Assembly (NCBI GenBank): GCA_012225525.1
Contig: GCA_012225525.1_3923.1
Direction: 5' to 3' (one strand)
Source: a phage
Length of the DNA stretch: 64,000 bases
The position numbers were made by a program, and so were the translations under genes. Under the pieces are notes generated by a model. The model ran no database searches and was not told where the DNA came from. It saw only the letters and a program-made list of their open reading frames with translations. Below, one piece after another: positions 3,927 through 58,943 of the stretch. Within the stretch, counting starts at the first letter, position 1; each line of letters starts with the position of its first letter.

Positions 3927-4781
3927 ATGTTTGAAAAGATTGATAGTGTTTATTATAAAACACTTGATGAAAGGACTGTAACACAGTTTAAAGATAAATT
4001 TATCTATACAAGTATCTTGAAAGCAATCACTGATGAGCTACAAACACTAGAGGATGTTTGCTGGCAGATGCACACAGAGAGAAATATCAGGACGTCAGTA
4101 GGCCAACAACTTGATAATATTGGCTCACTGATTAAAGTTCCTAGACCTTTAGGTGCTGATGATGAAACATACAGAGCTATGCTTTATATCCAAATCTTCC
4201 TAAGACGTTCTGATACTACTCCAACATTCTTGCAAAAAGCAATTATGACATTGTATGGTGCAACTTTCTCTCAGATTTTTGAACATATTACTCCTAAGAC
4301 TGGTGGTATCGTTATCCGTATTAATACTAGAAAAAGCGTTCTTGATGCTGCATATACACTGTCAAAGATTTCTGCAACAACCACTGGTTCCGCTGTTATC
4401 TTAAGAGATGTTACTTTAAATGGGACCGCTTGGACACCTGTAGAGGTTGCTGATTCATCACTTGCTATTGTTGATGATAAAGAGAACTGGTTTGTAACTG
4501 ATGCTAACAGAGGTCTGGTAACAAATAACACTGGTGGCTCTCTGGAGTCCAACTTAGTAGGGAGTCTTGCAGATGCTGGTGTTATTGATGGTTACTTTAA
4601 GGTTGACAGAACAGCAAACTCACAGAGCGATGATTATATGACTGTAGATAGGTCTAATAATAGTGGCTATTTCATTGCTGGTAAAGAAGCTATTGCAGGT
4701 GGTGCATATGGAATCATGGCTGAGGTTGCACAAATTGTCAAAGGCAGAAAAGATAAATCACAACAAGAAGGAAATTCTTAA
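3927..4781 (+). CDS. putative baseplate or tail-fibre-associated protein
   Basis: 284 aa ORF in structural block. Confidence 0.4.
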
Positions 4782-5083
4782 TGGCAGTTCTAAATTGGTC
4801 TACAAACGAAGTAGATACTGATGGTAATCAGTTAAAAGTTTTACCACCACCGGAAGTTCAAGAGACAGGTCTTTTAAAGGGTGAGCCTATGGGTAGACAG
4901 TGGTTCAACTATATTATCAACTACCTGCTGAATAAAGTAAATGGCACTGTTGGTGAAGTTCGTTCATATGCAACTGAGCAACCAGATTTAGTGGCTAATG
5001 GCTGGAATCTCATTAAGTCTGAGACAGGGACTGCATCAACAAGTACAAGAAACCTTTACACATATGAATATGTAGGAGCTTAA
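4781..5083 (+). CDS. hypothetical structural protein
   Basis: 100 aa ORF coupled between structural genes. Confidence 0.4.
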
Positions 5084-5085
5084 TA

Positions 5086-6261
5086 ATGGCAGTAGGTGAA
5101 ATTCAAATTAGTGCCTTGCCACAAGCGGCCTTACCAATTGATTTGAGTGATATCTTCCACCTTAAGCAAGGTGTTGAGGATAAAAGATGTACGCTTGAGC
5201 AGTTGTTAGCACCTCACGCATCTCTGAGGAATAATCCTCATGGTGTAACTAAATCACAAGTGGGTCTTGATAATGTTATTAACTCTCTTCAATTAGTTGC
5301 AGCTAATAACTTGTCAGACATTGTGAATGTTGCTGAGGCAAGAGCAAATCTACAAATTATGTCGTCAGAGGAAGTGAATAATTTAATTAAGAAACATATT
5401 GACGATAAAAGTAACCCACACAATACAACGAAAGCACAGGTTGGTTTAAGTAACGTTCAAAACTGGACAACATCTAATTTATATAATGAAGATGCTGATA
5501 AATATGCTACAGCAAAAGCAGTCAATAACTTGTACAAAGCTATCCAAGCATCATATCCAGTAGGGACAATCCATCTATCTGTGAATCCAGCTAACCCATC
5601 CACTTACTTACTTTGTGGAGGTACTTGGGAATTAGTTTCTAAAGGTAGAGCACTAGTTGGCTATGATACAGATTCTAGACCTGTTGGTTCAATGTTTGGT
5701 TCTCAGACTGTAGCATTAACAAATAATAATTTACCAGCGCATACTCACTCTATCTATCTAACAGGTGGTGGTCATACACACTCTGCAAGCGTATCTATCT
5801 CTAGCTTTGATTATGGTTCAAAAAGTACATCGACTTTTGATTATGGTACGAAGACAACTAACAGTGCTGGTGCTCACACGCACACGTTTAGTGGCACAAC
5901 AAGCAATGCTGGTAACCACAACCATAGAGTACCTATGAGGGGTAATGATAGAGGTGGTACAAATGCTATTACTGCATCTGCTGATGCTGGTGTTGGTAAT
6001 GCTATGTATACTGATTTAGCTGGTGCTCACACCCATAGCTTCTCAGGCACAGCTGCATCATCTGGTGCTCATAGTCATACTGTTGCAATTGGTGCTCATA
6101 GTCACACTGTTAATATTGGTTCACACAGCCATACAGGTACTGTTACTGTTTCTAGCTCTGAGCATACACACTCAGGGACATCTGGTTCTGTTGGTGGTGG
6201 TCAAGCTTTCAGTGTTGAGCAGCCATCTTTTGTAGTGTATGTGTGGCAGAGAACAGCTTAA
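5086..6261 (+). CDS. tail fibre protein with C-terminal His-x-His repeat domain
   Basis: Repeated HTHS / HSHT / HNH motifs in a Gly/Ser/Thr-rich C-terminus (AHTHSIYLTGGGHTHSAS, GAHSHTVAIGAHSHTVNIGSHSHTG), as in metal-coordinating tips of T4 gp37-type fibres. Confidence 0.7.
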   Translation: MAVGEIQISALPQAALPIDLSDIFHLKQGVEDKRCTLEQLLAPHASLRNNPHGVTKSQVGLDNVINSLQLVAANNLSDIVNVAEARANLQIMSSEEVNNLIKKHIDDKSNPHNTTKAQVGLSNVQNWTTSNLYNEDADKYATAKAVNNLYKAIQASYPVGTIHLSVNPANPSTYLLCGGTWELVSKGRALVGYDTDSRPVGSMFGSQTVALTNNNLPAHTHSIYLTGGGHTHSASVSISSFDYGSKSTSTFDYGTKTTNSAGAHTHTFSGTTSNAGNHNHRVPMRGNDRGGTNAITASADAGVGNAMYTDLAGAHTHSFSGTAASSGAHSHTVAIGAHSHTVNIGSHSHTGTVTVSSSEHTHSGTSGSVGGGQAFSVEQPSFVVYVWQRTA

Positions 6262-6307: not shown

Positions 6308-8857
6308 ATGGCAGATTACAAATTGAGTCAATTAAACTCAATCGACACAATTCGTTCAGAAGACCTATTGCACATCAGAGTTAAGAAAAGACCTGAAATG
6401 TTGGGTGATGAAGACCGTAGAATGACCTATCAAGACTTCTTAGCTTCCTTCAAACTAGAAAGGTTTGTTCAGATTGCTGGAAGCACTATGATTGGGGATT
6501 TAGGTATTGTCAAGTTACTTTACGGTGGAAAGTCTGTATTTGACCCTACAGGCTCTTCTGAGATTACTATTGGGGATATTTTAAAGACTTTTAAAATTAA
6601 CGCAAATGGTCTTAAACTAACTATTGCAGATGCTTCAAGGTCAGCAACTGTTTATCATACTCTGAATAAGCCAAGTCCTAATGAGCTTGGTATGAGGACT
6701 AATGAAGAGAATGATGCAAGATACGCAAGACTTGCTATCACAAACACATTCTCTGGAACTCAAAATATTCAAGGTGATGCTAACTTACTTCGCCTTAGAA
6801 ACCAAAATGCAAATAATGCACAATATATCGAAGGTGTAAACCTAGATGGTTCGGCTAGATGGTGGGTTGGTATTGGTAGTAATGGCTCTGACGAAGTAAA
6901 GCTGTACAATAACAAATACAACTCAGCCTTGACTGTTGCAAGTAATGTCTCTGTTAATAAGTCTTTAGCAATCACTGGTCAAGTTCAACCTTCAGATTTC
7001 TCTAACTTAGATGCCAGATACTTCACTCAGACAGTTGCTAATCAGAGATTTGCACAGTTAGCTGGTAATAACACCTTTACAGGTGCTAACACATTTAGGA
7101 CTATGAGTGTTATCTCAAATGCTGCTGCTATCACACTGCAATGTGCATCAGCAAACGAATCCCTGTATCTACTTGCAAAAGATTATGAAGGTGGAAACTT
7201 ATGGTATCTTGGTAAAGGTAGTTCAGGTGCTGGTGTAACTATCTACAACTATACCACTAACACCTCTTTAGTCTTAGATGCTGCTGGAGTATCAGCAAAT
7301 AAAAATGTCAGAATCACTGGTCAAGTTCAACCTTCAGATTGGGCTAACATTGACTCTAGATATATTCCGGCAGCAACATTAAGTACGATTGCAAGAACTA
7401 ATGCAAGGAATACTTTTAATGGTGTACAGACAGTTGTTACGGATAATGAAGGTCTGATTGTTAAAAACTCTACTCAGAATAGACCATTATATATTCGTGG
7501 TGTGGACACTACTAATGTATCAAGATGGTGGATTGGTGTTGGTGGTGCTGATACGAATGATGTTACCCTAAATAACAGTTATTCTGGAACCCAATTGGTT
7601 CTCGGGAATACAACATCATACATTAACAAAACATTGACTATTGCTGGACAAGTTCAACCTTCAGATTTCTCTAACTTAGATGCTAGATACTTTACGCAAA
7701 GTGCTAGTGATAGTAGATACCTAAGAATCAGAAGCACTAGCTTCAATGTGGGAAACACTGATAAGTGGGCTAAAATTGCCACTGTTGTGATGCCACAATC
7801 AGCATCCACTGCTGTTATTGAGGTATTTGGTGGGTCAGGTTTTAATATTAATACACCAAACCAAGCAGGTAAATGTGAAATTGTTCTGCGAACTTCAAAT
7901 AACAATCCAAAGGGCTTAAATGTTGTTGCTTGGAGAACATCAGAGAACACCATTGTCAGGGATATTGGTTATGTGAATACTTCTGGAGACACCTATGATA
8001 TTTACTATCTTGCTGGTACGTATCAAAACAGCACAACGACAAGGGTTCAGTCTTCTAGTAATGCAAGTGTACAGTTGTTTGAAGTCCCACAGACATTTGA
8101 TGATGCTCCACAAGGTATTGTGAAGGGTACAATTGCAAAATACTACACAAGTTTGCAAAAACCAACCCCTTCAGATATTGGTGCATACACTAAAGCAGAA
8201 ACTGACCAGAAGATTGCAGAAGCAATTAGTGACTCTACAGACCTGAATAAAATCTATCCAGTAGGTATTGTAACGTGGTTTAACAGCAATGTTAACCCTA
8301 ATACAGCACTTCCTGGGTTAACTTGGACGTACCTGAATAATGGTGTTGGTAGAACTATTAGAATTGCAGCAGCAAACGGTTCAGATGTTGCTACAACTGG
8401 TGGCTCAGACTCTGTAACGCTGTCTGTTGGTAACTTACCTTCACACACGCACAGCTTCTCTGCTACTACTTCATCATTTGACTATGGTACTAAGACTTCT
8501 AGCACAACTGGTAACCACAACCACAACAGAGGTACTATGGAGATTACTGGTTCATTTGGTTACTTCAGAAGTGACGCTAGTAGCTTCTACACAGCAAGTG
8601 GTGCATTCTACCTCGGTAGTCAGGCAGGTTCTAAAGGGTATACTGGTAACAACTTTACTAATGGTATCCCTGTCAACTTCAACGCATCAAGAAACTGGTC
8701 TGGTGTAACGAATACAACAGGTAACCACAGCCACACTGTTGGTATTGGTGCTCACAGCCACACAGTTAGCGGTAACACAGGTGGTACTGGTTCTGGTTCA
8801 GCATTTAGTGTTACTAACCAGTTCTATAAGTTAATGGCTTGGGTAAGAACTGCTTAA
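6308..8857 (+). CDS. long tail fibre protein
   Basis: 849 aa; three internal copies of ITGQVQPSD(F/W)(S/A)N(L/I)D(A/S)RY; C-terminus has the same HxH motifs (SHTHSFSATTSSFDYGTK, GNHSHTVGIGAHSHTV) as the preceding fibre gene. Confidence 0.75.
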   Translation: MADYKLSQLNSIDTIRSEDLLHIRVKKRPEMLGDEDRRMTYQDFLASFKLERFVQIAGSTMIGDLGIVKLLYGGKSVFDPTGSSEITIGDILKTFKINANGLKLTIADASRSATVYHTLNKPSPNELGMRTNEENDARYARLAITNTFSGTQNIQGDANLLRLRNQNANNAQYIEGVNLDGSARWWVGIGSNGSDEVKLYNNKYNSALTVASNVSVNKSLAITGQVQPSDFSNLDARYFTQTVANQRFAQLAGNNTFTGANTFRTMSVISNAAAITLQCASANESLYLLAKDYEGGNLWYLGKGSSGAGVTIYNYTTNTSLVLDAAGVSANKNVRITGQVQPSDWANIDSRYIPAATLSTIARTNARNTFNGVQTVVTDNEGLIVKNSTQNRPLYIRGVDTTNVSRWWIGVGGADTNDVTLNNSYSGTQLVLGNTTSYINKTLTIAGQVQPSDFSNLDARYFTQSASDSRYLRIRSTSFNVGNTDKWAKIATVVMPQSASTAVIEVFGGSGFNINTPNQAGKCEIVLRTSNNNPKGLNVVAWRTSENTIVRDIGYVNTSGDTYDIYYLAGTYQNSTTTRVQSSSNASVQLFEVPQTFDDAPQGIVKGTIAKYYTSLQKPTPSDIGAYTKAETDQKIAEAISDSTDLNKIYPVGIVTWFNSNVNPNTALPGLTWTYLNNGVGRTIRIAAANGSDVATTGGSDSVTLSVGNLPSHTHSFSATTSSFDYGTKTSSTTGNHNHNRGTMEITGSFGYFRSDASSFYTASGAFYLGSQAGSKGYTGNNFTNGIPVNFNASRNWSGVTNTTGNHSHTVGIGAHSHTVSGNTGGTGSGSAFSVTNQFYKLMAWVRTA

Positions 8858-11774: not shown

Positions 11775-12134
11775 TTATGGGAACAAGCACTTAATGTCGT
11801 CGTTTTTGAAAACAAAACTCGTGTAGTTGTGACCATCAACATCCAACCAAACAGCCTGAACATCTACACCGTCAAGATTATGGTAAAGCTCTTTGATGAA
11901 GTGGTCTTTTACAATCTGACTGCTAGTGGTTTCCAGCTTAATGTTCGAGATTGCTGAACCTACAGCCATGTAGCCCATGACACGTTTCTTCTCAGTGTGC
12001 TTAATCTTACCATCTTTGTAAGCCATAATGAGATTGGAAAGAATTTTTACACCGTAGTACTTTTCAAGGTGAGTAGGTGCACCATAAAAGCCTAATGCGA
12101 AGTTTTCAGAGTGGATAATGTTTTCACGTTTCAT
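11775..12134 (-). CDS. hypothetical protein
   Basis: 119 aa ORF. Confidence 0.45.
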   Translation of the reverse strand: MKRENIIHSENFALGFYGAPTHLEKYYGVKILSNLIMAYKDGKIKHTEKKRVMGYMAVGSAISNIKLETTSSQIVKDHFIKELYHNLDGVDVQAVWLDVDGHNYTSFVFKNDDIKCLFP

Positions 12135-13417: not shown

Positions 13418-13858
13418 TTAGAAAGGTTTTCTGCGTTGCTTGTTAATATTAGCTTTCATAGCAGCTAAGTGATTTTGCTGTTCAATCAGTCGTGAACGTT
13501 CTTGATGACTAAGTGCCATAGTGTTCACATTCTCAATCGCTTGAGTGGCTTGCTTTAAAGCACGACCAATCTTACCAGACATTTTGCGTTTTGCAATAGT
13601 TGCTTGATGCTTAGGTTCAACCACACGATAACCAACACCCATTGAAGCAACCAGATAAATCTTCTCTTCTTTAAGAAGTTTTTCAATAAACTTTTCAAGT
13701 CGGTTTAGACGTGTAAGCGCATAAGCCTTCATTTCATCTTCGTACTTAACAATGTCACCTTGATAAGTTGGCTTCACAATACCTAAGAAGGTGTCCATCT
13801 CAGAATGTGATACAGTGTCACCGTAACTAAACTTTGCTGCTAATGCTTTTGTATTCAT
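13418..13858 (-). CDS. hypothetical protein (repeat-flanked cassette)
   Basis: 146 aa ORF. Confidence 0.45.
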   Translation of the reverse strand: MNTKALAAKFSYGDTVSHSEMDTFLGIVKPTYQGDIVKYEDEMKAYALTRLNRLEKFIEKLLKEEKIYLVASMGVGYRVVEPKHQATIAKRKMSGKIGRALKQATQAIENVNTMALSHQERSRLIEQQNHLAAMKANINKQRRKPF

Positions 13859-49684: not shown

Positions 49685-50470
49685 ATGGGTATTGTAAAAA
49701 TAATCAATGGTGATATCTTTGCCGCATTTGATAAAGGTAAGTTTGACATCATCGGTCACGGTTGCAACTGTATGAATTTAATGGGTGCAGGTATCGCTGA
49801 CAAGATTTCTAAACTTTACCCAAAAGCATATGAGACCGATACAGAAGTTTATCTATATGCAGGTGGTATAGGACACAAACCCTGTGAAAATTTACTGGGT
49901 AATTTCTCTGTAGCACGTTTAAAACAAGGTCGTATAGCTAACCTTTACACTCAGCTTAAGACTGGTAAAGATGCCCGATACAGTGCTTTAGAGTCATCTT
50001 TGAAACAGCTTAACAGATACTGTGAAGTTAATCAGTTGAAGAAAGTTGGTTTACCTATGATTGGTGCAGGTATTGGTGGGCTGGACCCTCAAGCTGTCAT
50101 AGTTATCATCAATCAGGTGATGAAGAGTGTAGATGTTTATCTGTATGTCTATGAAGGAGAGATGTACCACAAGTTACGCTCAGGTTGGAAGAACTACTGT
50201 GAACCAGAATACTTTGCAGGTGTAGCAGTGTTCACAGATAACGCAGTTACCCTCTTCAGACGAAGAAAAGGTAAGATACATCAAAGTAACCCTCCGGTTG
50301 AAAAGATGTCTCTGAGTAACGCTCTAGTTACCCACCTGTCGAAGAGCAATCACAGGATTGCAGTAACATTTGGCAGTGATGCAGATACTTATATCTATGC
50401 AAGAACTGATGAGGATATCGAGACAGTTTTCTCTTCACCAGAAGTTACCTTCTTAGACGCAAAGAACTAA
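49685..50470 (+). CDS. macrodomain protein (TARG1/DarG-like ADP-ribose-processing fold) with extra C-terminal domain
   Basis: N-terminal INGDIF...IIGHGCNCMNLMGAGIA...PMIGAGIGGLD parallels TARG1-type motifs (GDLF...H..S.DC.MGAGIA...PRIGCGLD); about 110 aa C-terminal extension of unknown fold. Confidence 0.65.
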   Translation: MGIVKIINGDIFAAFDKGKFDIIGHGCNCMNLMGAGIADKISKLYPKAYETDTEVYLYAGGIGHKPCENLLGNFSVARLKQGRIANLYTQLKTGKDARYSALESSLKQLNRYCEVNQLKKVGLPMIGAGIGGLDPQAVIVIINQVMKSVDVYLYVYEGEMYHKLRSGWKNYCEPEYFAGVAVFTDNAVTLFRRRKGKIHQSNPPVEKMSLSNALVTHLSKSNHRIAVTFGSDADTYIYARTDEDIETVFSSPEVTFLDAKN

Positions 50471-50538
50471 GAAACTCTGTAGAATATTCACAATAGACTA
50501 AGCCTTTCTTATCTGGTAAATTTTTCAGGTAAGGAGGG

Positions 50539-50724
50539 CTTTTTCATTTCAGGATTGTGCAGGTAGAGTTCTGTAGAGAAATCTGTAGAGAGAATTTTGA
50601 ACTCCAAAGAGAAAATTCATTTTCAAACTGTGCAGGTAATCTCCAAAGAGCTTTTTCATTTTCAAAACGTGCAGACCCCGCTCAGGTCGGGCAAGAAAAA
50701 TCATTTTAGAATTGTGCAGGTAGG
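50539..50724. repeat. four direct repeats of a 25-28 nt motif, followed by a C-rich tract
   Basis: CTTTTTCATTTCAGGATTGTGCAGGTAG, AAAATTCATTTTCAAACTGTGCAGGTAAT, CTTTTTCATTTTCAAAACGTGCAGACC, AAAAATCATTTTAGAATTGTGCAGGTAGG; then CCCCTCTCCCCCTCTTACTCCCCCTCTCCCC at 50748-50778. Confidence 0.7.
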
Positions 50725-50898
50725 TTTTTATAGAGAGCCAGACCAACCCCTCTCCCCCTCTTACTCCCCCTCTCCCCAAAAGTCAAGAGAAAAATTTGTA
50801 GTGGATTGAAAAATAATTCTTGATTTGTGTTCTGTTTTGTGGTAGTCGCGTGCGCCCGTTTCATTACAGTTTTGCTAAAAATATTTTTAAAAATTTTC

Positions 50899-50927
50899 TT
50901 GACTCTTTGAACGGGGTTATCTAATAT
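50899..50927 (+). promoter_or_regulatory. sigma70-like promoter heading the small-gene array
   Basis: TTGACT, 17-nt spacer, TAATAT. Confidence 0.55.
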
Positions 50928-50979
50928 TTGCATCAGACGGGGCGACAAGCTCAACAACCTTAAACTAGGAGATTCAAAA

Positions 50980-51360
50980 ATGGCATATCGTGCACCTAAA
51001 TTCATCAACAAAGACAACTTTCGCAACGCACTGGAGAAGTCACTTGATGAAAATTTTAAAGGTAACATTATCGTTGTTCACGCATTCAATTTTAAGTATG
51101 ATGTAAACGGGAATAGAATCAACCATTACACGGCAACCATGTCAGATGGTACACTTTCAAGTGAAAAAGCCGTACTAAATGCACTGGCAGGACGTGGAAA
51201 GGTATTAGTAAGATGTGATAAGAGACGTTATCAGGGCGGCGCATATGGTTATGATGATGCTGTTTACCATCTTGAAAATATGGGCTATCAAGTAGAAAAA
51301 GCTGGAGCATCACAAATCATCGGCAGCGATGGTTATGTAACAATCTTCAAAATTAACTGA
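50980..51360 (+). CDS. small early-type protein 1
   Basis: 126 aa; ATG preceded by conserved CCTTAAACTAGGAGATTCAAAA leader. Confidence 0.6.
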   Translation: MAYRAPKFINKDNFRNALEKSLDENFKGNIIVVHAFNFKYDVNGNRINHYTATMSDGTLSSEKAVLNALAGRGKVLVRCDKRRYQGGAYGYDDAVYHLENMGYQVEKAGASQIIGSDGYVTIFKIN

Positions 51361-51448
51361 TAAAGTACTTTACAAGGGGCTTATAGTTCGATAAAGTAAG
51401 CCCCAGATAAAGAGCTTTACCACTAAATCCTAAATTGGAGATTCAAAA
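51357..51448 (+). promoter_or_regulatory. type-1 intergenic cassette (hairpin plus conserved AGATAAAGAGCTTTACCACT box plus conserved RBS leader)
   Basis: GTACTTTACAAGGGGCTTAtagttcgataaagTAAGCCCCAGATAAAGAGCTTTACCACTAAATCCTAAATTGGAGATTCAAAAATG; near-identical copies at 51737, 52811, 53598, 54876. Confidence 0.7.
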
Positions 51449-51739
51449 ATGGCTACTATCAAAAACGTTGTAATTCCTGTAAAAACTCGTGATGACGCTC
51501 GCATCATGGCGAAAAAGTTAGGCGGGAAAGTGGTTGACAACGGAAAACAATCTGCTGTAAGATGGGGTGTGAAGGCTGATAAACAGTTGAAGTTAAAAAA
51601 TTCACCAATAAATCTTTTTACATGTGTAAACACTATCGGAAAGACAAATGTATACACGAAAAAGGCATATATTAGACGCGTAGCCTTAACATCTCCAATT
51701 CGTACAATGAGAGGTTATGCAAAGCTGAAAATTAACTGA
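51449..51739 (+). CDS. small early-type protein 2 (basic)
   Basis: 96 aa behind a type-1 cassette. Confidence 0.6.
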   Translation: MATIKNVVIPVKTRDDARIMAKKLGGKVVDNGKQSAVRWGVKADKQLKLKNSPINLFTCVNTIGKTNVYTKKAYIRRVALTSPIRTMRGYAKLKIN

Positions 51740-51827
51740 TAAAGTACTTTACAAGGGGCTTAAAAGTTGGTATCTTAAGCCCCAGATAAAGAGCTTTACC
51801 ACTCAATCCTAAACTGGAGATTCAAAA

Positions 51828-52124
51828 ATGAAATTACCAAATAAAGTTCGTGAAAATCTAAGCAAATTACTCAACAAAATTGATTTCATTGAAACATCAA
51901 GAAATAGCCATGATGTTATGGAATGGTTACACGGCAAAATAAAAGGTCGTCGTGTAGTGATTTGCTTATGGAATAGTTGCAGGGAGTATAAAAAACCTGT
52001 ATTGCAAGTTAATATCTATGATGATACTCTTAAAAGTCCTGTCAAATCTAAAAGCGATTTACTAGATTCTTATGAGATAACTGTAAATGGCAAAGTGTCA
52101 CGTAAAGAGGAAGCACCATGTTAA
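51828..52124 (+). CDS. small early-type protein 3
   Basis: 98 aa behind a type-1 cassette. Confidence 0.6.
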   Translation: MKLPNKVRENLSKLLNKIDFIETSRNSHDVMEWLHGKIKGRRVVICLWNSCREYKKPVLQVNIYDDTLKSPVKSKSDLLDSYEITVNGKVSRKEEAPC

Positions 52125-52450
52125 TGACTGGTATCACTGCAATCATTGCCATTTTCGCGCTCTATAAGGCATATAAAGCCTATAATCTAGCAAATAAGGC
52201 AATTACACAACAGGTTAGCAATAACCTTGTAATGAGCTTTCTAGAGCGGTTGAGCGATGAACAATTAAAGCGGTTAGAAATGAGCTTCAGATTCAGGGCG
52301 AGAACTTATCAAATCAGCGACATTTTCAAAGATGATTTTCAATTAGTCGATGATTATAATTCTCTGATAAATGCTTTAAATATTAGTGACTTAAAAGACT
52401 ATCATACTGTAATTGTTCAAGAGTTGAGCAAACGAAAACAAAACTGTTGA
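52118..52450 (+). CDS. small membrane protein 4
   Basis: 110 aa, N-terminal TM helix (TGITAIIAIFALY); overlaps previous stop. Confidence 0.5.
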   Translation: MLMTGITAIIAIFALYKAYKAYNLANKAITQQVSNNLVMSFLERLSDEQLKRLEMSFRFRARTYQISDIFKDDFQLVDDYNSLINALNISDLKDYHTVIVQELSKRKQNC

Positions 52451-52540
52451 CACTGGTTTTTAGATAGATTAAATTACACATCAACGGGGAGGGAATGACC
52501 TTCCCCACTAAATAAAGTCCTTAAACTAGGAGATTCTAAA
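52447..52540 (+). promoter_or_regulatory. type-2 intergenic cassette (promoter TTGACA-17-TAAATT, GC hairpin, conserved RBS leader)
   Basis: TTGACActggtttttagatagatTAAATTacacatcaacGGGGAGGGAATGACCTTCCCCactaaataaagtccttaaactaGGAGAttctaaaATG; related copies at 53310, 54556, 55462, 56057, 56389. Confidence 0.7.
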
Positions 52541-52813
52541 ATGTATACTACTAACAATGGCCGCACTTTGAACGTCACACTACGTCACTATGTAGATGGT
52601 GTCATGCACTTTGAAGATTTACAAGCTGAACAACATATCTTAGATTGGCAAGTCGCAGGACTCCAAAAAACTGCTACGGGATACGGTAAAAAGATTCCAA
52701 CTAGTTGGAAAGTTCACTATGAAGGACGTTTGCGCAGAATTTATCAAGATGTGCAAAGCAATAGTGCATCGAGTTACATTATAGTAAAAGGTAAAAAACT
52801 GCATTTAGTGTAA
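52541..52813 (+). CDS. small early-type protein 5
   Basis: 90 aa behind a type-2 cassette. Confidence 0.6.
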   Translation: MYTTNNGRTLNVTLRHYVDGVMHFEDLQAEQHILDWQVAGLQKTATGYGKKIPTSWKVHYEGRLRRIYQDVQSNSASSYIIVKGKKLHLV

Positions 52814-52896
52814 AGTACTTTACAGGGGGTTATCAAGCTGATAAGATAGCCCCAGATAAAGAGCTTTACCACTAATCCTAAATTGGAGATTCAAAA

Positions 52897-53301
52897 ATGG
52901 CTATCAATAATCGTGAATTATCAATCTTAAAAGCACGTTTGACCGTTAATCGAATCAATGTTATCACGTCATCAGCACCGGATGAAACATTGCACAACAT
53001 TATCGGAAAGATTCAAAGCGTTATCTTAGACGTTGAAAACGTAAAAAGTTCATTGGCTGACGTTGCAGCAGGTATCACGCTAGACGGTGCGCAATATGAA
53101 ATGGCTGACATGTTAGGCAAATCAAAGGTAATGAATAAAGAACTTGATTTAAAAATGTTTCGATTTGCCGTGAAAGTATGGCTATCCGTCGAGTATGACG
53201 CTAATTTTGCAATCGCTGATTTCTTCGCCACTTGGTTGCAACGTAATTTGACAAATCATGATTTTCGTGACATCTGCGACGCAATTTATGCAGAACTCTA
53301 A
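52897..53301 (+). CDS. small early-type protein 6
   Basis: 134 aa behind a type-1 cassette. Confidence 0.6.
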   Translation: MAINNRELSILKARLTVNRINVITSSAPDETLHNIIGKIQSVILDVENVKSSLADVAAGITLDGAQYEMADMLGKSKVMNKELDLKMFRFAVKVWLSVEYDANFAIADFFATWLQRNLTNHDFRDICDAIYAEL

Positions 53302-53402
53302 AAATTTTATTGACACTGATTTTTAGATAGATTAAATTACACATCAACGGGGAGGGAATGACCTTCCCCACTAAGTAAAGTCCTTAAACTAGGAGATTCA
53401 AA

Positions 53403-53600
53403 ATGGCTATTATCAACGGTTTAACCATTGAAACCACGCACATCAAAGACATTAAAGTTGGTGATGTAGTTCTTTCCCACGGCGTAGAAAAAACAGTCAC
53501 TGCAAAGGATATCAAAGATGATTCTTTCATGGGTAGAACTCTCTTCGGTGATTCTTATTGCTTAGGTTATCTTGCAGTTTTAAAAGTTGTCAAAAATTAA
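53403..53600 (+). CDS. small early-type protein 7
   Basis: 65 aa behind a type-2 cassette with TTGACA-17-TAAATT promoter at 53310-53338. Confidence 0.55.
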   Translation: MAIINGLTIETTHIKDIKVGDVVLSHGVEKTVTAKDIKDDSFMGRTLFGDSYCLGYLAVLKVVKN

Positions 53601-53693
53601 CTGATAAAGTACTTTACAAGGGGCTTATAGTTCGATAAAGTAAGCCCCAGATAAAGAGCTTTACCACTAAATCCTTAAACTAGGAGATTCAAA

Positions 53694-54236
53694 ATGAAAT
53701 GCTTTCACGGTACTACTCAAGAAAACTTTATCAACCTGATTAATAACGGTGATAAACCATCAGGTGTATGGAATTGTTCGGATATGGACGGCAATTTTTA
53801 CGTGTACCCAGAAAATAAACTCTATGGTGATGATGAGGAAGAGATAGCATCGGAAGGTATCCAGCAAGCTCTAGGAAATGCCACTATCACGGCAGCTTTT
53901 CAGATGAAAACTCAAAATATTGTTATCTTAGAACTTGACATTCCAGAGGATGAGCTAAATGATGATTATTCTTGTGATAACATGTCAAATATAGCAAGCT
54001 TTACAGAGTACTTTGATGTAAATTGGATTAAAAAGGTCTATACAACAGAGTTCAACGCTATGTATTCACCTTTTTGTCTCCCTTCACTGGATAACCCAAA
54101 TTTAAATTATCTTGATGAAACATTGGAGCTACTTGCTAAAAGTATCCAACAATCCGACAGTATTCAGGTTTTTTGTGACATCATGGATACACTGACAGAA
54201 AACATTGTAGAGAGTGATTTAAAGGTCTTTTTCTAA
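53694..54236 (+). CDS. acidic protein 8
   Basis: 180 aa, rich in Asp/Glu (DDEEEI, IPEDELNDDYSCDNM); behind a type-1 cassette. Confidence 0.6.
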   Translation: MKCFHGTTQENFINLINNGDKPSGVWNCSDMDGNFYVYPENKLYGDDEEEIASEGIQQALGNATITAAFQMKTQNIVILELDIPEDELNDDYSCDNMSNIASFTEYFDVNWIKKVYTTEFNAMYSPFCLPSLDNPNLNYLDETLELLAKSIQQSDSIQVFCDIMDTLTENIVESDLKVFF

Positions 54237-54302
54237 AAACCTATACATTCACCTTATAAACACTGATTAACCCCTTACAGGGGCTTTTAGAGGGCTTAAA
54301 TC

Positions 54303-54536
54303 ATGCTTACAACCATTTATCTCATCCTTTCCATTTGTAACGGCCATTCATGTGACTTTAAAGGGCTTGAAGAGTTTACAGGAAGTAAAGAAAATGCTAT
54401 TCAAGTTTGCCAGATAGCAAGACAAGACTACCCCGCCAGTGATGATATACAATGTTACTTTAAGACAGAAGATGACGAAGGAATCTATTTCGACAGTGTC
54501 GATGGTCAATATGAAATTATCATTGAAAAAGACTAG
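54303..54536 (+). CDS. small acidic protein 9
   Basis: 77 aa; own short leader with a GGGGCTTTTAGAGGGCTT stretch upstream. Confidence 0.5.
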   Translation: MLTTIYLILSICNGHSCDFKGLEEFTGSKENAIQVCQIARQDYPASDDIQCYFKTEDDEGIYFDSVDGQYEIIIEKD

Positions 54537-54629
54537 ACAAGCCTGATAAAAGTCTGTAAATTATCAATCAACGGGGAGGGAATGACCTTCCCCACTAAGT
54601 AAAGTCCTTAAACTAGGAGATTCCAAAAA

Positions 54630-54878
54630 ATGTATACTAAAACTCAACTAAAAAACATGGTTAGCAATGGCTTAATGGATGAAGTCTATAAAGAGTGTAG
54701 ACGCTACGGGGAAATTAAGGATAAGACTAGTTATGAGTATACCCACACAATAGACTTTAAAACCAATGAGAAGAGGACTGACCTTGTTACTGTAGTAGTG
54801 ATTGAGTATAAACGAATTATTTGGACCTTTGAGCTAGTAAAAGGTGAGTGCACAGAGATAGAATATAAAGACGCTTAA
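54630..54878 (+). CDS. small early-type protein 10
   Basis: 82 aa behind a type-2 cassette. Confidence 0.6.
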   Translation: MYTKTQLKNMVSNGLMDEVYKECRRYGEIKDKTSYEYTHTIDFKTNEKRTDLVTVVVIEYKRIIWTFELVKGECTEIEYKDA

Positions 54879-54963
54879 AGTACTTTACATGGGGCTTATT
54901 AGTCTGTATAGTAAGCCCCAGATAAAGAGCTTTACCACTCAATCCTAAACTGGAGATTCTAAA

Positions 54964-55305
54964 ATGGCTTATGTAACCGTAATTACCGATAAAGCTGGCT
55001 CATCTTGGTCAACTCAAGTAAGTGATAAGATGTCACCTATGCAGTGCCTAAAATACTTTGAACAGTGGAACAAAGGCGAGGGTGTAAGCCCCTTTCAAGT
55101 GATGCAAATCATCCATACAGATAACGAAGGGAATAAAACGACCTTGAACAGTGAATACTACGCAAGCCGTTTTGAAACGAGAAGTAAAACAATGAAGCTT
55201 TTACGTGAATCCGGTTATGCACATATTGCCGCTTTAATCTGGGATGACCTGCTAAAAAGTCAGCGTATCAGCTATGTAAAACCTGAAAAAATATTCATCA
55301 GTTAA
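54964..55305 (+). CDS. small early-type protein 11
   Basis: 113 aa behind a type-1 cassette. Confidence 0.6.
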   Translation: MAYVTVITDKAGSSWSTQVSDKMSPMQCLKYFEQWNKGEGVSPFQVMQIIHTDNEGNKTTLNSEYYASRFETRSKTMKLLRESGYAHIAALIWDDLLKSQRISYVKPEKIFIS

Positions 55306-55433
55306 TCAATAACTTATAAAAAACTTTTAAAAAAGTGTTGACAATACCCATTGACATTGGTAACTTTGTTCGAGGGGGTTATCTAAAAGGGATTCACTTA
55401 ATAGATTCTTTATAGATAAACTTAAAAAATTGC

Positions 55434-55462
55434 TTGCAAAGGCAAATCAAAACAAGTATAGT
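55434..55462 (+). promoter_or_regulatory. sigma70-like promoter
   Basis: TTGCAA, 17-nt spacer, TATAGT, just upstream of a type-2 hairpin/RBS leader; further TTGACA motifs at 55338 and 55351. Confidence 0.55.
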
Positions 55463-55526
55463 ACTAATCAACGGGGAGGGAATGACCTTCCCCACTAAGT
55501 AAAGTCCTTAAACTAGGAGATTCAAA

Positions 55527-56057
55527 ATGAACAAGTTTCAAGCTATCAACTACATTCGCTCATCTAACGTTATGACTAAACCCGTTAAAGATACCTTCGA
55601 ATTTCGTTGCAACGGTGTACACTTTGCAACTATCACTAAATCAGAAAACGGGGCTTATTATATACATCGTCGTAATGTTTCTACTGTTGTAGTATCTCAC
55701 TTTATGCAAGCTGTAGCAGAACTGTTACCGCTATTCTTAGGTATTTACTTAGATGAGTGTAAAAACGTTCGCAACCACGTTAAAGACCTTTTAAATGGTT
55801 ATAAAATGGCTTATGAACGTTCTATCAAGAATCTTAACAAGTTCTATAAAGCCCCTGAAAACACCGTATCAATAGCTTATGATGTAAGCGGTGAAATGGT
55901 CAACCTCTCCAATGTAGAACAAATTGGCCTTTATGATTTACGTCCTAGCGGTTATTCTAAGACTCTCGGTGAAGGCTTATCCTTCAATATCAAGAACTTA
56001 GAAAAAACTTTAAAAGATATTGAAAAAGATATTGACGAGACAATCAAAAGTCTGTAA
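55527..56057 (+). CDS. early-type protein 12
   Basis: 176 aa behind a type-2 cassette. Confidence 0.6.
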   Translation: MNKFQAINYIRSSNVMTKPVKDTFEFRCNGVHFATITKSENGAYYIHRRNVSTVVVSHFMQAVAELLPLFLGIYLDECKNVRNHVKDLLNGYKMAYERSIKNLNKFYKAPENTVSIAYDVSGEMVNLSNVEQIGLYDLRPSGYSKTLGEGLSFNIKNLEKTLKDIEKDIDETIKSL

Positions 56058-56124
56058 ATTGTCAATCAACGGGGAGGGATTAACCTTCCCACTAAGTAAA
56101 GTCCTTAAACTAGGAGATTCAAAA

Positions 56125-56388
56125 ATGGAAAACGTAGAATTAACCACACTTTTACAAATTGCAACCGACAAAGAAGATGTAGCATTATTCCACCGTATCG
56201 AAAGCGATTTGTTCAATGGTGAAATCATTAAAGAATCTTACGAAGTTGTCGGATTCAAAGATGGTAAAGCATTTGGCTTTTTTGACCTCGACAAAAGCAA
56301 AGCGGTTACAATGTACGATGTTCTATCTTGTGAAATTCTGACAAAATACAACGAAAAAAGGCTTGCAACCTACGCCAATATGCAGTAA
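56125..56388 (+). CDS. small early-type protein 13
   Basis: Start at ATG 56125 (MENVELTT...) after conserved leader; the ORF-track start at 56020 reads through the cassette and is unlikely. Confidence 0.55.
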   Translation: MENVELTTLLQIATDKEDVALFHRIESDLFNGEIIKESYEVVGFKDGKAFGFFDLDKSKAVTMYDVLSCEILTKYNEKRLATYANMQ

Positions 56389-56455
56389 ATTACTAATCAA
56401 CGGGGAGGGAATGACCTTCCCACTAAACAAAGTCCTAAACTGGAGAATCTAAATT

Positions 56456-56704
56456 ATGTCAACTATCCGCGTAACTGTTAATGCTTATGGCTGCCACCAA
56501 CTTGATGCAAAATTCGATATCGGTGGAACAGATAACACCTTTGACCTTATCAAAATGCTGATTCAGCAGGTGATACCAGATTATAACCCTACTGATGACT
56601 TCTGGAAAGATGCCGTAAAAGAAGCCATAAACGAGGAATCTCACTACCATTATTGGGGTGACTTGATTATCTCTCTGTACTACAGCAAACAAGGTTACAA
56701 CTAA
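56456..56704 (+). CDS. small early-type protein 14
   Basis: 82 aa behind a variant type-2 cassette. Confidence 0.55.
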   Translation: MSTIRVTVNAYGCHQLDAKFDIGGTDNTFDLIKMLIQQVIPDYNPTDDFWKDAVKEAINEESHYHYWGDLIISLYYSKQGYN

Positions 56705-56712
56705 TCGACGCA

Positions 56713-56770
56713 ACGGGGCTAAATAGCCCCAGATACCTGAAAAGCTCCTTCTCATAGGGGCTTTTTTACG
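56713..56770 (+). terminator. putative terminator at end of small-gene array
   Basis: GGGGCTaaatAGCCCC hairpin, then CATAGGGGCTTTTTTACG. Confidence 0.45.
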
Positions 56771-58340
56771 TCTATAAAGAGACTCTATACAATCCCTTTC
56801 CTTTCCTTCCTAGAATCTATCCCGTACCTTAAAAGCAATAACTCTATAGGTTATTCTATAGCCCCTTATCAAATCAACTTAAATAAAAGCCAATAACCCC
56901 AGAAAGGGGATGGCCCATTAAAACGCTCTATAAAGCTCTATAACAGCCTTATCAACCTAACTTAAGCAATCATATTAACCCACTCTAAAAAGCCCTTTAT
57001 AGAGCTTCCCAGAGCCTTAAAAGAATCTTATAAGGGTGTAAGTTTATAGGCTGGCTAGTATCTTGTGAATAACTAAACAATCCCCTTGATAGTCACTAAA
57101 AAGCATGTTATAGGGGGTATAAAGTTACTTCAAAGTAACGTAAAAAAGGCTATAAAGTTACGTAAATGCTAGCCCCCTTAACATTTTCTTAACAATTTCT
57201 TAACAATCCCTACATAGTTATGCTTGTTAGCCCCTTGTTAAATCTCTGTTAAGACCACGTAAAAGCCTTGTAAGAGTCTTTGACATAGCCTTAAAAGCTC
57301 CTGTAAAGCCCTATAAAGAGGTGTCTGTATAGTTGGGGTGTAATTACTAGGAAGAGACTTAAAAGAGCTTACAAGGAGCTATAGAGAGCTTTTAAGAGGT
57401 ATGTTTAAGAGTTCACTAAGAAAGGAAGGGAACGATAAGAAAAGAGATAGTGACCATGTTAATAGCTTGTTAAAAAGATTAAACACTTGTTAGGAACTTG
57501 TTAATTATCTTAATTGGTATTGTTACCAATCCCTACAAAATAACTCTTTAAAATTAACTTGTTAGCTCTTGTTAGTCATCTGTTAAGCCTCTGTAAAGAC
57601 TATTCAGCACTTGTTAGAAAACTGTTAAGCCCTTGTTAGTTCTGTTAAGAAACTGTTAAGACCTTTGAAGAGATGTTAAGAGCTTGAGAGAGTTGTTAAG
57701 AGATTGTTAAGGATATTTTAAAATTTTGCAAAGTACTTGTAAGGGAGCTGTTAAGGGCTACCAAGCAGATATACATCTTCTACAGATATTTTTCAGTCCC
57801 TTCAAAGACCCTAAAAAATGACTTGATAGTCCTATTTTATAAAAATTTTAAAATTCTGAATAATTACCTAGACAGTCTTTTAAAAATACAGGTAGAAACA
57901 GGCTTATAAGATACCTTGTTAGTACCGTGTTAGACCTTGTGAGATAAGGTCTGTAAAGATATTCCTGTTAAGTTTGTTAAAACAGTCTATATAGAGGCTT
58001 AGTAGTGCCTAGTGAACACCTATAGAGGGTAACATAGCTAACCTAGAGATTAAGAGGTGTATAGGAGCTTCTAAGAGGGTGTAGAGAGATGGTTAAGGTG
58101 ATTGTATAGGTTGTTAAGAAGGCTTGTTAGAAGAGTGTTTAGAAGGGCTATACAGAGGGGCTATTAAGACCACTAGATAGATACTAAGATACTATATAGT
58201 ACTATATAACTATATAGAGAGTAAGATTAAGAAGGTTGTTAAGAAGGGTAGATATTTTATTCACATATGATGGTGACCCAGCGGTTGGGACAACCGATAA
58301 ATTTTATAAAAATTAAAAAGCCCCCGATTAAGGAGGCTCT
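56770..58340. repeat. 1.6 kb ORF-free region dense in short degenerate direct repeats (CTATAAAG/CTATAGAG family, then TGTTAAG/TGTTAG family)
   Basis: No ORF of 60 aa or more on either strand; at least 12 exact TGTTAAG plus many TGTTAG/TGTAAAG variants clustered at 57200-58260; CTATAAAG/CTATAGAG words at 56770-57420; lies between convergently transcribed blocks. Confidence 0.8.
58314..58340 (-). terminator. putative terminator (minus strand)
   Basis: On the minus strand GAGCCTCC...GGGGGCTT hairpin followed by TTTTTAATTTTT. Confidence 0.4.
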
Positions 58341-58349
58341 TAAGATATT

Positions 58350-58943
58350 TTAAATCAGTGTTTCCAGAACTGTTTTCAATGATGACTTGGTTGTCTGATA
58401 AAAATGAGTAAATCCATTGTTATTATCGAATACCTGCATCATGATATCATCTCCCTTGATTGGGTACACTCGGATATCATAGTGAAAACCATTAAAGACA
58501 CAAGAGCCATTACAGAATGCACTAAAGTCATCCACTGAGATATACTCTTCATGTCCTGTGATTTTTATACAAACACCTTTACTCGGTCTCTTAGGGTTGA
58601 TATCTTCCATCACAGACATACTCTGTCCACCAAGAGACACCATAGTGACCACTTTACGGTTCTTCTGTTTAAAGTACATCTTAACTTTCTGCAAAGTGTC
58701 TTCATAGAACGGATAAGACTTCTCTACAAATATTCCTTCAAGTGGCTCTTTACCATTTTCAACTTCTCTGGTATGTCGTACTGCAAAGATAATTTGTTGG
58801 AACCAGTCAAGATTTTCTTCGGAGAGTGCTTCTCGAACATCACTCCAGTCAAGGACTAGATAGTTACCTTCAACTTCTTTTAAGTTATCTTTTTCCATAT
58901 CTATCACACCATTATCGTAAAACTTGATATTCTGGTACTGCAA
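58350..58943 (-). CDS. hypothetical protein
   Basis: 197 aa ORF, last gene of minus-strand block. Confidence 0.5.
   Translation of the reverse strand: MQYQNIKFYDNGVIDMEKDNLKEVEGNYLVLDWSDVREALSEENLDWFQQIIFAVRHTREVENGKEPLEGIFVEKSYPFYEDTLQKVKMYFKQKNRKVVTMVSLGGQSMSVMEDINPKRPSKGVCIKITGHEEYISVDDFSAFCNGSCVFNGFHYDIRVYPIKGDDIMMQVFDNNNGFTHFYQTTKSSLKTVLETLI

Follow-up and report, generated by a model that had tools for sequence, protein, structure and literature searches.

A 64,000-nucleotide stretch of phage DNA (NCBI GenBank assembly GCA_012225525.1, contig GCA_012225525.1_3923.1; hereafter the window) carries on its plus strand an array of 14 small open reading frames (ORFs; 65–180 aa) spanning positions 50980–56704, most of which stand behind a copy of one of two repeated intergenic cassettes that combine a predicted promoter, an RNA hairpin and a ribosome-binding site (RBS). 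The window is that of a Felixounavirus (Ounavirinae), whose positions 50800–56800 align end to end with Escherichia phage wV8 (EU877232, 7967–13980) at 97.3% identity and match 258 phage records. The locus is probably an early accessory-gene array of a Felix-O1-like phage, built of self-contained promoter/hairpin/RBS modules that also recombine.

Genes of the Array

The array forms one contiguous 5.8-kb block at the genome end. It begins with g01 (50980–51360; 126 aa; phrog_4495), g02 (51449–51739; 96 aa, basic, isoelectric point 10.8), g03 (51828–52124; 98 aa), g04 (52118–52450; 110 aa), g05 (52541–52813; 90 aa), g06 (52897–53301; 134 aa) and g07 (53403–53600; 65 aa), continues with g08 (53694–54236; 180 aa), g09 (54303–54536; 77 aa, acidic), g10 (54630–54878), g11 (54964–55305; 113 aa), g12 (55527–56057; 176 aa) and the sporadic gene g13 (56125–56388; 87 aa), and closes with g14 (56456–56704; 82 aa). 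The last of these has two deeply divergent alleles among relatives (97% versus ~55% identity), as does g02 (~90% versus ~60%).

A preliminary description of this DNA had placed all 14 ORFs behind a near-identical leader. This holds for 12 of them, but g04 overlaps g03 (ATGTTAATGA) with no cassette between the two, an overlap kept in nearly all relatives that have both genes, and g09 has an RBS of its own (AGAGGG) and sits after a true terminator. This internal intrinsic terminator (54271–54288, plus strand; CCCC-TTACA-GGGG followed by CTTTT) is annotated as Rho-independent in wV8 and is conserved in relatives. Similarly, the division into two cassette types accounts for 11 ORFs (five type-1, six type-2) but not for g01, which has a third type of leader, TTGACT-17-TAATAT, lacking the type-1 and type-2 hairpins.

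As the preliminary description stated, the array proteins are unrelated to each other (BLASTP) and to known families; Pfam gave no match above cut-off for any of the 14, and every one falls into a PHROG of its own whose function is unknown, with g02 and g12 also giving weaker matches to other PHROGs of that kind. The strongly acidic protein it had singled out is g08 (isoelectric point 4.05), and the one it took to be membrane-anchored is g04, which has a hydrophobic N-terminus. Its suggestion of a host-takeover or anti-defence role found no backing in Pfam or in PADLOC, which was run on 10 of the 14 proteins and gave no hit, and the leads concern a single gene: g08 weakly resembles the ADP-ribosyltransferase fold (one weak lead), and its homologue g107 of phage Bas63, where the array corresponds to bas63_0098–0111, matters more on strain S17-1 according to PhageMaP, which also notes a slight structural similarity of g107 to the NAD-binding domain of RNA 2′-phosphotransferase. 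The array proteins may have such a role.

Repeats and Their Common Leader

The type-1 20-mer AGATAAAGAGCTTTACCACT occurs in five copies, all on the plus strand (51405–54939); with up to three mismatches allowed, the rest of the 64 kb still has none. The type-2 21-mer GGGGAGGGAATGACCTTCCCC occurs in four exact copies and two with one to three mismatches (52486–56422), again with none elsewhere in the 64 kb, and a strict motif scan of the whole 64 kb found the long leader CCTTAAACTAGGAGATTC seven times, in the array only. A repeat search of the window returned families of 94–103 nt; the frequency of repeats in the array is far beyond chance. The 12 leaders end alike, seven with CCTTAAACTAGGAG and five with CCTAAA(C/T)TGGAG, and all 12 place the Shine-Dalgarno (SD) sequence GGAG 7–9 nt ahead of ATG.

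In centroid folds of all leaders, a small hairpin pairs UCCU with AGGA of the SD region (e.g., 52518–52531 and 53381–53394). In Erwinia phage phiEa104 the SD sequence is AAGGA and the upstream partner CCUU, so that the pairing would be kept; this hairpin may be a weak translational control element.

As sequences the repeats are not new, having been recorded earlier as bare direct repeats. The wV8 GenBank record annotates them as DR_1 to DR_9, and the Felix O1 genome paper, in which promoters and temporal control are described as unknown, lists 57-bp and 39-bp direct repeats at homologous positions and gives no function for them (PMC3185647). The wV8 paper does not mention the repeats, and neither the wV8 record nor the Felix O1 paper proposes a promoter, a structure or a role in recombination.

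Type-1 Cassette: A Predicted Promoter Within a Hairpin

All five type-1 copies are on the plus strand. Copy 1 (51349–51448), ahead of g02, has its −35 box TTTACA at 51369–51374 and its −10 box TAAAGT at 51392–51397 in the loop of a hairpin whose upper stem is GGGGCTTA/TAAGCCCC (51376–51404) and whose extended form (51361–51419) includes the upstream stop region; the leader with SD GGAG follows, and the minimum free energy is −24.2 kcal/mol (z-score −3.95). The copy ahead of g03 (51728–51827) has its −35 at 51748–51753, the −10 box TATCTT at 51771–51776 and an extended hairpin at 51740–51798 (z −2.89), and that ahead of g08 (53593–53693) has its −35 at 53613–53618, the −10 box TAAAGT at 53636–53641 and an extended hairpin at 53602–53666 (z −3.98). 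Ahead of g06 (52809–52896) the hairpin is of allele C (GGGGGTTATC..GATAGCCCC), with the −35 at 52819–52824 and the −10 box TAAGAT at 52842–52847 (z −2.57). The fifth copy (54874–54963), ahead of g11, is of allele D, with the −35 at 54884–54889 and the −10 box TATAGT at 54907–54912 (z −3.88), and goes missing together with g10. The five leaders therefore fold at z = −2.6 to −4.0. The number of copies given in the preliminary description stands, as does a hairpin followed by the conserved 20-mer, but the stem it gave is replaced by GGGGGTTATC..GATAGCCCC in one copy, and the promoter and the extended stem had been missed.

In a set of 97 type-1 copies, comprising 51 unique sequences and taken from three genera and 19 genomes, the cassette reads as a sigma70-type promoter, TTTACA-17-TAnnnT. 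The −35 box is TTTACA in 97 of 97 copies. Within the −10 box, T1 and A2 are each found in 50 of the 51 unique sequences and T6 in all 51, positions 3–5 take any base, and a G at −14 is at least 90% conserved. This hexamer has the signature of a putative sigma70 −10 element, lying in a stretch free of pairing constraint.

The extended stem forms between UAAAGU-A-CUUUA, which precedes the hairpin, and UAAAG-A-GCUUUA of the conserved 20-mer, which follows it. The result is an interrupted stem of ~20 bp (6 + 5 + 8–9 bp, with a 1×1 mismatch and a 3×3 internal loop) that has the upstream stop codon in its base, the −35 box in its lower part and the −10 box in its apical loop (11–13 nt). Among 61 distinct sequences, this 19-pair structure is 98.0% paired, versus 32–57% when the 3′ partners are slid by one to three columns. 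Pairs that change on both sides are found at 6–56 and 19–43 (G-C/U-A), 2–60 (U-A/A-U) and 21–41 (C-G/U-A); at 6–56, where the two motifs are 50 nt apart, 49 sequences have G-C, six U-A and two G-U. U·G wobbles occur at 21–41 in 18 of the 61 sequences, and these wobbles pair on the sense strand only. The alignment thus points to an RNA structure of the sense strand that is likely to be under selection.

Transcription is predicted to start ~7 nt after the −10 box, where the upper stem has its 3′ foot. The intercistronic type-1 hairpin has the form of an RNase III site, that is, ~20 bp of double-stranded RNA broken by an internal loop, which the type-2 hairpin (8 bp only) does not. In addition, the type-1 repeat begins ~12 nt before the upstream stop codon, and therefore the unrelated proteins g01, g02 and g07 have common repeat-encoded C-termini (KIN, KIN and KN, encoded at 51349–51360, 51728–51739 and 53593–53600).

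Type-2 Cassette: A Predicted Promoter Followed by a Hairpin

The six type-2 copies, likewise on the plus strand, precede g05, g07, g10, g12, g13 and g14. The first two have the boxes TTGACA and TAAATT: copy 1 (52447–52540) at 52447–52452 and 52470–52475, followed by a hairpin at 52486–52506 and the leader with its SD sequence, and copy 2 (53310–53402) at 53310–53315 and 53333–53338, with the hairpin at 53349–53369. In copy 3 (54534–54629) the −35 box TAGACA (54534–54539) contains the stop codon of g09, the −10 box TAAATT is at 54557–54562 and the hairpin at 54573–54593. Copy 4 (55434–55526), at the end of a 221-nt intergenic region, has TTGCAA at 55434–55439, TATAGT at 55457–55462 and its hairpin at 55473–55493. 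Copy 5 (56032–56124) has TTGACG (56032–56037) within the end of g12, TAAATT (56055–56060) containing the g12 stop codon, and a hairpin at 56071–56090; copy 6 (56363–56455) has TTGCAA at 56363–56368, TAAATT at 56386–56391 containing the g13 stop codon, a hairpin at 56402–56421 and the leader variant GGAGAATC. The preliminary description was right about the six copies and the 17-nt spacer, which is found in all of them, but its TTGACA-17-TAAATT is exact in two of the six; the others have TAGACA, TTGCAA or TTGACG combined with TAAATT or TATAGT.

In a comparative set of 87 unique type-2 sequences, the −10 box is TAAATT in 70, and 83 have both the 17-nt spacer and a distance of exactly 6 nt to CAACGGGG. 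The 8-bp hairpin starts 10 nt after the −10 box in 83 of the 87, and a predicted transcription start at the C or A of CAAC would leave three or four unpaired nucleotides at the 5′ end. The stems vary in sequence and length (GGGGAGGG/CCTTCCCC, GGGAGG/CCTCCC, GGGGG/CCCCC), and nearly all fold at −10 to −17 kcal/mol; the structure was judged by folds of single sequences, because indels in stem length make a MAFFT alignment unfit for column-wise covariation.

The 221-nt gap between g11 and g12, which is conserved in relatives, contains at 55338–55390 an extra TTGACA-17-TAACTT and the 12-mer GGGGTTATCTAA, which is also present in the spacer of the array-start promoter. The gap was considered as a remnant of that promoter, and this was rejected because the two have just this 12-mer in common and their BLAST similarity is not significant.

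Promoters, Terminators and Timing of Expression

The array-start promoter and leader (50899–50979, plus strand) consist of a −35 box TTGACT (50899–50904), a 17-nt spacer, a −10 box TAATAT (50922–50927) and the universal leader CCTTAAACTAGGAGATTCAAAA, with an AT-rich tract upstream. Every relative has the same promoter ahead of whichever gene is first (g01, X01 or X03, where X denotes further families of the compared arrays). Together with the 11 cassettes it makes up 12 leaders with −35 and −10 boxes, 17-nt spacers and a distance of 60–90 nt to the start codon. A promoter scan found 31 sites, versus 19.4 ± 4.5 in shuffles; 11 of the 12 leader promoters pass its threshold, and the cassette of g14 scores 8/12. 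As had been proposed, the cassettes carry the sequence properties of a promoter, a structured RNA and an RBS, and the conserved boxes and spacers make it very probable that they function as promoters.

The terminator scan found no terminator-like site at any cassette. Intrinsic terminators combine a GC-rich hairpin with a U-tract, and no U-tract follows either hairpin here: AGAUAAAG stands after the type-1 upper stem, CCACUAAAUCC after the full type-1 stem and ACUAAGUAAAG after type-2, with AGAUAAAG and ACUAAGUA as the downstream sequences in the comparison with intrinsic terminators. All three true terminators of the region (50500–50541, 54271–54288 and 56739–56768) have U-tracts. Rfam 15, applied to 50300–58400, returned a chance snoRNA match alone (E = 0.49); the database has no model for RNase III sites of the T7 type.

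Several cassette hairpins are marked as minus-strand Rho-independent terminators in the records of wV8 (12062–12106, 13581–13601) and KhF3. These annotations are probably software artefacts, because that strand has no transcribed genes at these places and turns the wobble pairs, which fit the sense strand only, into mismatches; the minus-strand reading was rejected.

Early expression has been reported for part of the array. In Felix O1, reverse transcription PCR found ORFs 16, 20, 21 and 22, the homologues of X02, g06, g11 and g12, to be maximal at 5 min (PMC3185647, Table 3).

Variation of the Array Among Relatives

Eighteen arrays were compared, with their genes clustered and every leader typed: those of the window, 14 Felixounaviruses, ESCO45 (unclassified Ounavirinae), Citrobacter phage Michonne (Mooglevirus) and Erwinia phage phiEa104 (Kolesnikvirus). 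Instead of the invariant array that the preliminary description had set against its idea of cassette shuffling, the comparison revealed 16 different gene strings, with breakpoints inside the cassettes. Single genes are gained and lost and cassettes are exchanged; gene order is unshuffled, being colinear in Felixounavirus and in Michonne. Variation affects X03 and X01 at the array front; g01, g02, X02, g03 and X04; the g07–g09 block; g10, X05 and g13; and g12–g14.

Junctions between cassette-linked neighbours measure 60–106 nt, which is one cassette, and the cassette left at each is intact. When g10 is absent, g11 stands behind the type-2 leader of g10, including its rare GGAGATTCC variant, and when g10 is present, g11 stands behind a type-1 leader; therefore the unit that is gained or lost is g10 plus its downstream cassette, with the crossover in the common RBS leader. 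X02 and X04 follow the same pattern, and X04 leaves g05 with an RBS leader of just 23–25 nt. In Felix O1 and JLBYU32, the type-2 leader of g07 is joined straight to g11, a deletion between two type-2 copies. Insertions and deletions mediated by the cassettes are thus in all likelihood the source of this variation.

Exchange between cassettes is also visible in their alleles, and some cassettes are chimeric. The four type-1 hairpin alleles (−10 boxes TAAAGT, TATCTT, TAAGAT and TATAGT) are distributed mosaically over positions; at the g06 leader, for example, the window has allele C and wV8 allele D, and the other arrays have A or B. Compensatory stem variants specific to a lineage are fixed in all copies of a genome (4/4 in ESCO45, 4/4 in phiEa104, 9/9 in Michonne), which indicates concerted evolution. 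The crossover points vary between events, which fits general homologous recombination better than a site-specific enzyme, and the cassette repeats appear from the compared arrays to be the substrates of recombination. In Michonne (~7349–7520), g02 is tandemly duplicated, and between the copies lies an "empty" cassette in which the universal leader and ATG run directly into the CTTTACA with which the next type-1 repeat continues, an arrangement that resembles a scar left by recombination.

Type-1 cassettes are present in 289 phage records, at ~5 copies each, from Escherichia, Salmonella, Shigella, Citrobacter and Erwinia Ounavirinae, and type-2 cassettes in 249 records; type-2 was not detected in Erwinia phages. 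Searches by blastn with either cassette match Ounavirinae records only, and in wV8 all five type-1 and all seven type-2 matches are within the array. In IMG/VR, 111 of 111 copies with cassette context are on contigs of 82–93 kb; 14 matches to the type-1 core outside Ounavirinae were set aside as chance 17-mers that lack cassette context. Type-1 is kept in Erwinia phages whose array proteins are only 34–49% identical. GU169904.1, which is labelled Staphylococcus phage SA1, has type-1 and type-2 cassettes at 96–99% identity in six places each (130054–131838), and probably contains Felixounavirus sequence.

The cargo consists of 22 ORF families found directly behind the universal leader in ~60 Ounavirinae stretches, ~11 of them near-universal and ~11 sporadic. 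The array therefore appears plastic but closed, with no influx of foreign ORFans.

Proposed Mechanism and Alternatives

Each cassette would be a self-contained early expression signal for the host sigma70 RNA polymerase, with the common unstructured leader CCT(T)AAACT(A)GGAGATTCAAAATG supplying the SD sequence. Transcripts that start at a type-1 promoter would not include the hairpin; it would be present only in read-through RNA, as the 3′ end of the preceding cistron, where it could act as an RNase III processing site of T7-type shape and/or as a 3′ stabiliser or weak attenuator. Processing by RNase III specifically is a tentative model. The type-2 hairpin, three or four nucleotides from the predicted 5′ end, probably protects or stabilises the 5′ end of its own mRNA. 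Because the cassettes are near-identical direct repeats with a universal 3′ leader, recombination or gene conversion between them would add, remove or convert units of one ORF and one cassette and leave the expression of the neighbours undisturbed. Sequence conservation, covariation, the positions of breakpoints and the early RT-PCR class are observed, and from them we infer the actual start sites, the involvement of an RNase, promoter strength and protein roles. A RegB-like endoribonuclease acting on the invariant GGAG was considered and rejected: an Erwinia relative has a RegB-annotated gene, but Pfam found none in the upstream genes scanned.

Several points weigh against this scheme. The T at −7 of the type-1 −10 box is also base-paired, which makes its conservation ambiguous. 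Changes on both sides are found at only 4 of the 19 type-1 pairs, a number reached by 14 of 500 shuffles, and stem from few independent events in related sequences. The RNase III idea is drawn from shape, and the 8–9-bp upper stems could equally be plain 3′ stabilisers. Array ORFs 17, 19 and 23 of Felix O1 are maximal at 25 min and not at 5 min (PMC3185647), and the literature searched holds no mapping of 5′ or 3′ ends for any Ounavirinae phage, so that start sites and processing are predictions. Finally, given the unshuffled order and the closed cargo of ~22 families, recombination may be a side effect of having repeats and not a function under selection.

The hairpins might instead be transcription terminators or insulators, as for the promoter-early stem-loop (PeSL) elements of T4-like phages, each gene then being an isolated unit with no processing or stabilisation. 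PeSL stem-loops lowered read-through in lacZ fusions (PMC2839356), the GC-rich GGGG..CCCC stems are as in PeSLs, and annotators of wV8 and KhF3 took several hairpins for terminators. This reading is nevertheless unlikely given the missing U-tracts, which the real terminators of the region have, the blank terminator scan at the cassettes, the apical loop of type-1, which at 11–13 nt is long for an intrinsic terminator, and the minus-strand position of the GenBank features, where U·G wobbles become A·C mismatches. Less likely still, the type-1 flanks AAAGTACTTTAC and AAAGAGCTTTAC and the type-2 motif AAAGTCCTTAAAC would be operators at which a phage or host DNA-binding protein switches the early promoters, the long stem being a side effect of two half-palindromic sites. 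The two motifs do bracket the −35 and the +1 region in an arrangement classic for repressors, the 10 bp of AAAGTACTTT form a perfect palindrome, AGATAAAGAGCTTT is nearly invariant over three genera beyond the needs of a spacer, and transcription timing in Felix O1 is unexplained (PMC3185647). However, the complementary changes at 6–56 and 2–60 are predicted by pairing and not by two operator copies, and neither the array genes nor the scanned upstream genes revealed a DNA-binding protein; operators would in any case be compatible with self-contained promoter/hairpin modules and not exclusive of them.

A stronger version of the modular scheme, in which type-1 is a host promoter written inside an RNase III-type hairpin, so that every early gene is started individually and also released from read-through RNA by cleavage, and the cassettes are a dedicated gene-swapping platform that excises and inserts units of one ORF and one cassette (for example, via mini-circles between co-infecting Ounavirinae), is improbable; if true, the array at the genome end would correspond, in a phage, to an integron that carries early counter-defence genes. 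It is very improbable that the hairpins are sites for a dedicated structure-specific recombination (attC-like, or PeSL mini-circles with a specific recombinase) that moves an ORF with its hairpin. The indel unit of an ORF and its downstream cassette does have integron cassette geometry, the mismatch and internal loop of the type-1 stem resemble attC bottom strands, the empty cassette of Michonne fuses leader and ATG to a type-1 repeat, and PeSL mini-circles were detected in RB49 and phi1 (PMC2839356); yet the array genes and the scanned upstream genes showed no integrase or recombinase domain, no single fixed crossover point exists as it does for integron attC cassettes, and order is colinear and the cargo pool closed. 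That the repeats are inert relics of the tandem duplication of one ancestral gene leader, with no present regulatory role, has next to no probability. One common 3′ leader in all cassettes, and CCACTAA..CCTAAACTGGAG in both types, are consistent with a single ancestral leader, but the cassettes are conserved over three genera while flanking proteins drop to 34–49% identity, the TAnnnT pattern, fixed 17-nt spacers and compensatory stem changes indicate selection, and array genes are transcribed early.

Flanking Regions and the Genome End

A long rightward transcription unit ends with the array; its upstream genes encode rIIA, rIIB, an SLT-domain protein, polynucleotide kinase, spanins and a Macro-domain protein. 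The array end (56714–56768, plus strand) consists of a degenerate cassette hairpin, CAAC-GGGGCTAAATAGCCCC-AGATA (56714–56729), and a strong intrinsic terminator that combines an A-tract stem with a U-tract (56739–56768), together folding at a minimum free energy of −28.5 kcal/mol (z −4.94). Downstream, non-coding DNA extends for ~1.6 kb and is followed by convergent genes. In Pr103Blw, an annotated short direct terminal repeat begins ~460 bp past the last array gene, and its equivalent in the window (57172–57762, strand not assigned; 89% identity over 603 aligned columns) lies ~400 bp past the array terminator; therefore the array is the last coding block ahead of the physical genome end.

Besides this equivalent of the ~580-bp direct terminal repeat, the non-coding DNA at 56770–58350 contains dense short TGTTAAG and CTTGTTA repeats (57212–57937) at spacings of 11, 20 and 42 nt, which may be packaging, end-recognition or replication signals. 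On the other side, ~430 nt of non-coding DNA separates the terminator of the Macro-domain gene from the array-start promoter. Within 50545–50779, this gap holds four copies of CATTT(T)CA..GTGCAGGTA (at 50545, 50618, 50657 and 50702; span 50545–50722) and, after them, the C/T-rich tract CCCCTCTCCCCCTCTTACTCCCCCTCTCCCC (50748–50779). A gap of similar size (479–526 nt) is present in all Felixounavirus relatives and in Michonne; an origin, a binding array and a small RNA are among its possible roles. The Macro-domain gene beside the array has 41% identity to that of the window in finno (2128–2907) and phiWec177 (4383–5162), versus 95–99% in the others, and is in these two phages an allelic replacement adjoining the array.

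Relation to Known Systems

In the early region of phage T7, RNase III cleavage provides the mRNA upstream of the cut with a stabilising hairpin at its 3′ end; processing sites between the T7 early genes (R0.3, R0.5, R1, R1.1, R1.3) were reportedly described by Dunn and Studier in 1983. Like these sites, the type-1 hairpins are intergenic, comprise about two helical turns with an internal loop and stand between small early genes read by the host polymerase (here a prediction), and a read-through RNA with a type-1 element would have the same 3′-hairpin geometry. Whereas the T7 early genes have three promoters at the left end in common, each hairpin here has its own predicted promoter. For the type-2 hairpin, a possible parallel is the ompA-type 5′-terminal stabilising hairpin, in which, as Emory, Bouvet and Belasco are said to have reported in 1992, a stable stem-loop is no more than a few nucleotides away from the 5′ terminus of the mRNA.

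The host-takeover module of Bacillus phage SPO1 is located in the terminal redundancy, and host shut-off has reportedly been demonstrated for several of its genes (Stewart and colleagues, 1998). The array and that module are both dense blocks of very small early genes (about two dozen in SPO1) by a genome terminus, with many strong host-type promoters (predicted ones in the array), strong RBSs and products that mostly lack homologues. Unlike the SPO1 module, which is inside the terminal repeat, the array adjoins the repeat; the SPO1 promoters are not embedded in repeated hairpin cassettes, and host shut-off is established for several genes there and for none of the array.

The closest likeness, already pointed out in the preliminary description, is to PeSLs, with which the cassettes agree in make-up and genomic setting. 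PeSLs are composite repeats of the T4-like phages RB49/phi1, T4/PST and KVP40/nt-1 (Arbiol et al., 2010, PMC2839356; Comeau et al., 2014, PMC4122927). In both systems a composite intergenic repeat joins a sigma70-type early promoter (predicted here, with a 17-nt spacer), a GGGG..CCCC stem-loop, and an SD sequence with the start codon; both are associated with a cluster of small ORFs (non-essential in PeSL regions, variable here), the indels of close relatives end in repeats, and degenerate or "half" elements occur. The cassettes differ from PeSLs in being limited to Ounavirinae and in having no sequence similarity to them. The stem-loop of a PeSL is placed upstream of the promoter (PMC4122927, Fig. 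3 legend), whereas the type-1 hairpin encloses the promoter, in a two-tier stem of ~20 bp with covariation, and the type-2 hairpin follows the start site. PeSLs are found in several hyperplastic regions with a stream of ORFans, in contrast to the single array at the genome end, with its closed cargo of ~22 families in fixed order. The array would thus work like a PeSL system, but by homology and architecture it is not a member of that group.

Implications

Neither the PeSL principle nor the repeats themselves are new; what is new is the extension to Ounavirinae and the predicted promoter and RNA map. Felix-O1-like phages are widely used in typing, biocontrol and therapy of Salmonella and E. 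coli, and the analysis offers for them a map of 12 predicted early promoters, two conserved RNA elements and rules for the gain and loss of array genes. The cassettes would be natural, compact and insulated expression modules, and would mark safe insertion points for phage engineering. The ~22 cassette-borne families provide a short list of early genes to screen for host takeover and counter-defence, with the family of g08 and Bas63 g107 already having a host-dependent fitness effect. For the Ounavirinae, the predicted map suggests that repeats serving both for regulation and as linkers in recombination, the principle behind PeSLs, extend beyond T4-like phages, and do so with a promoter-in-hairpin architecture.

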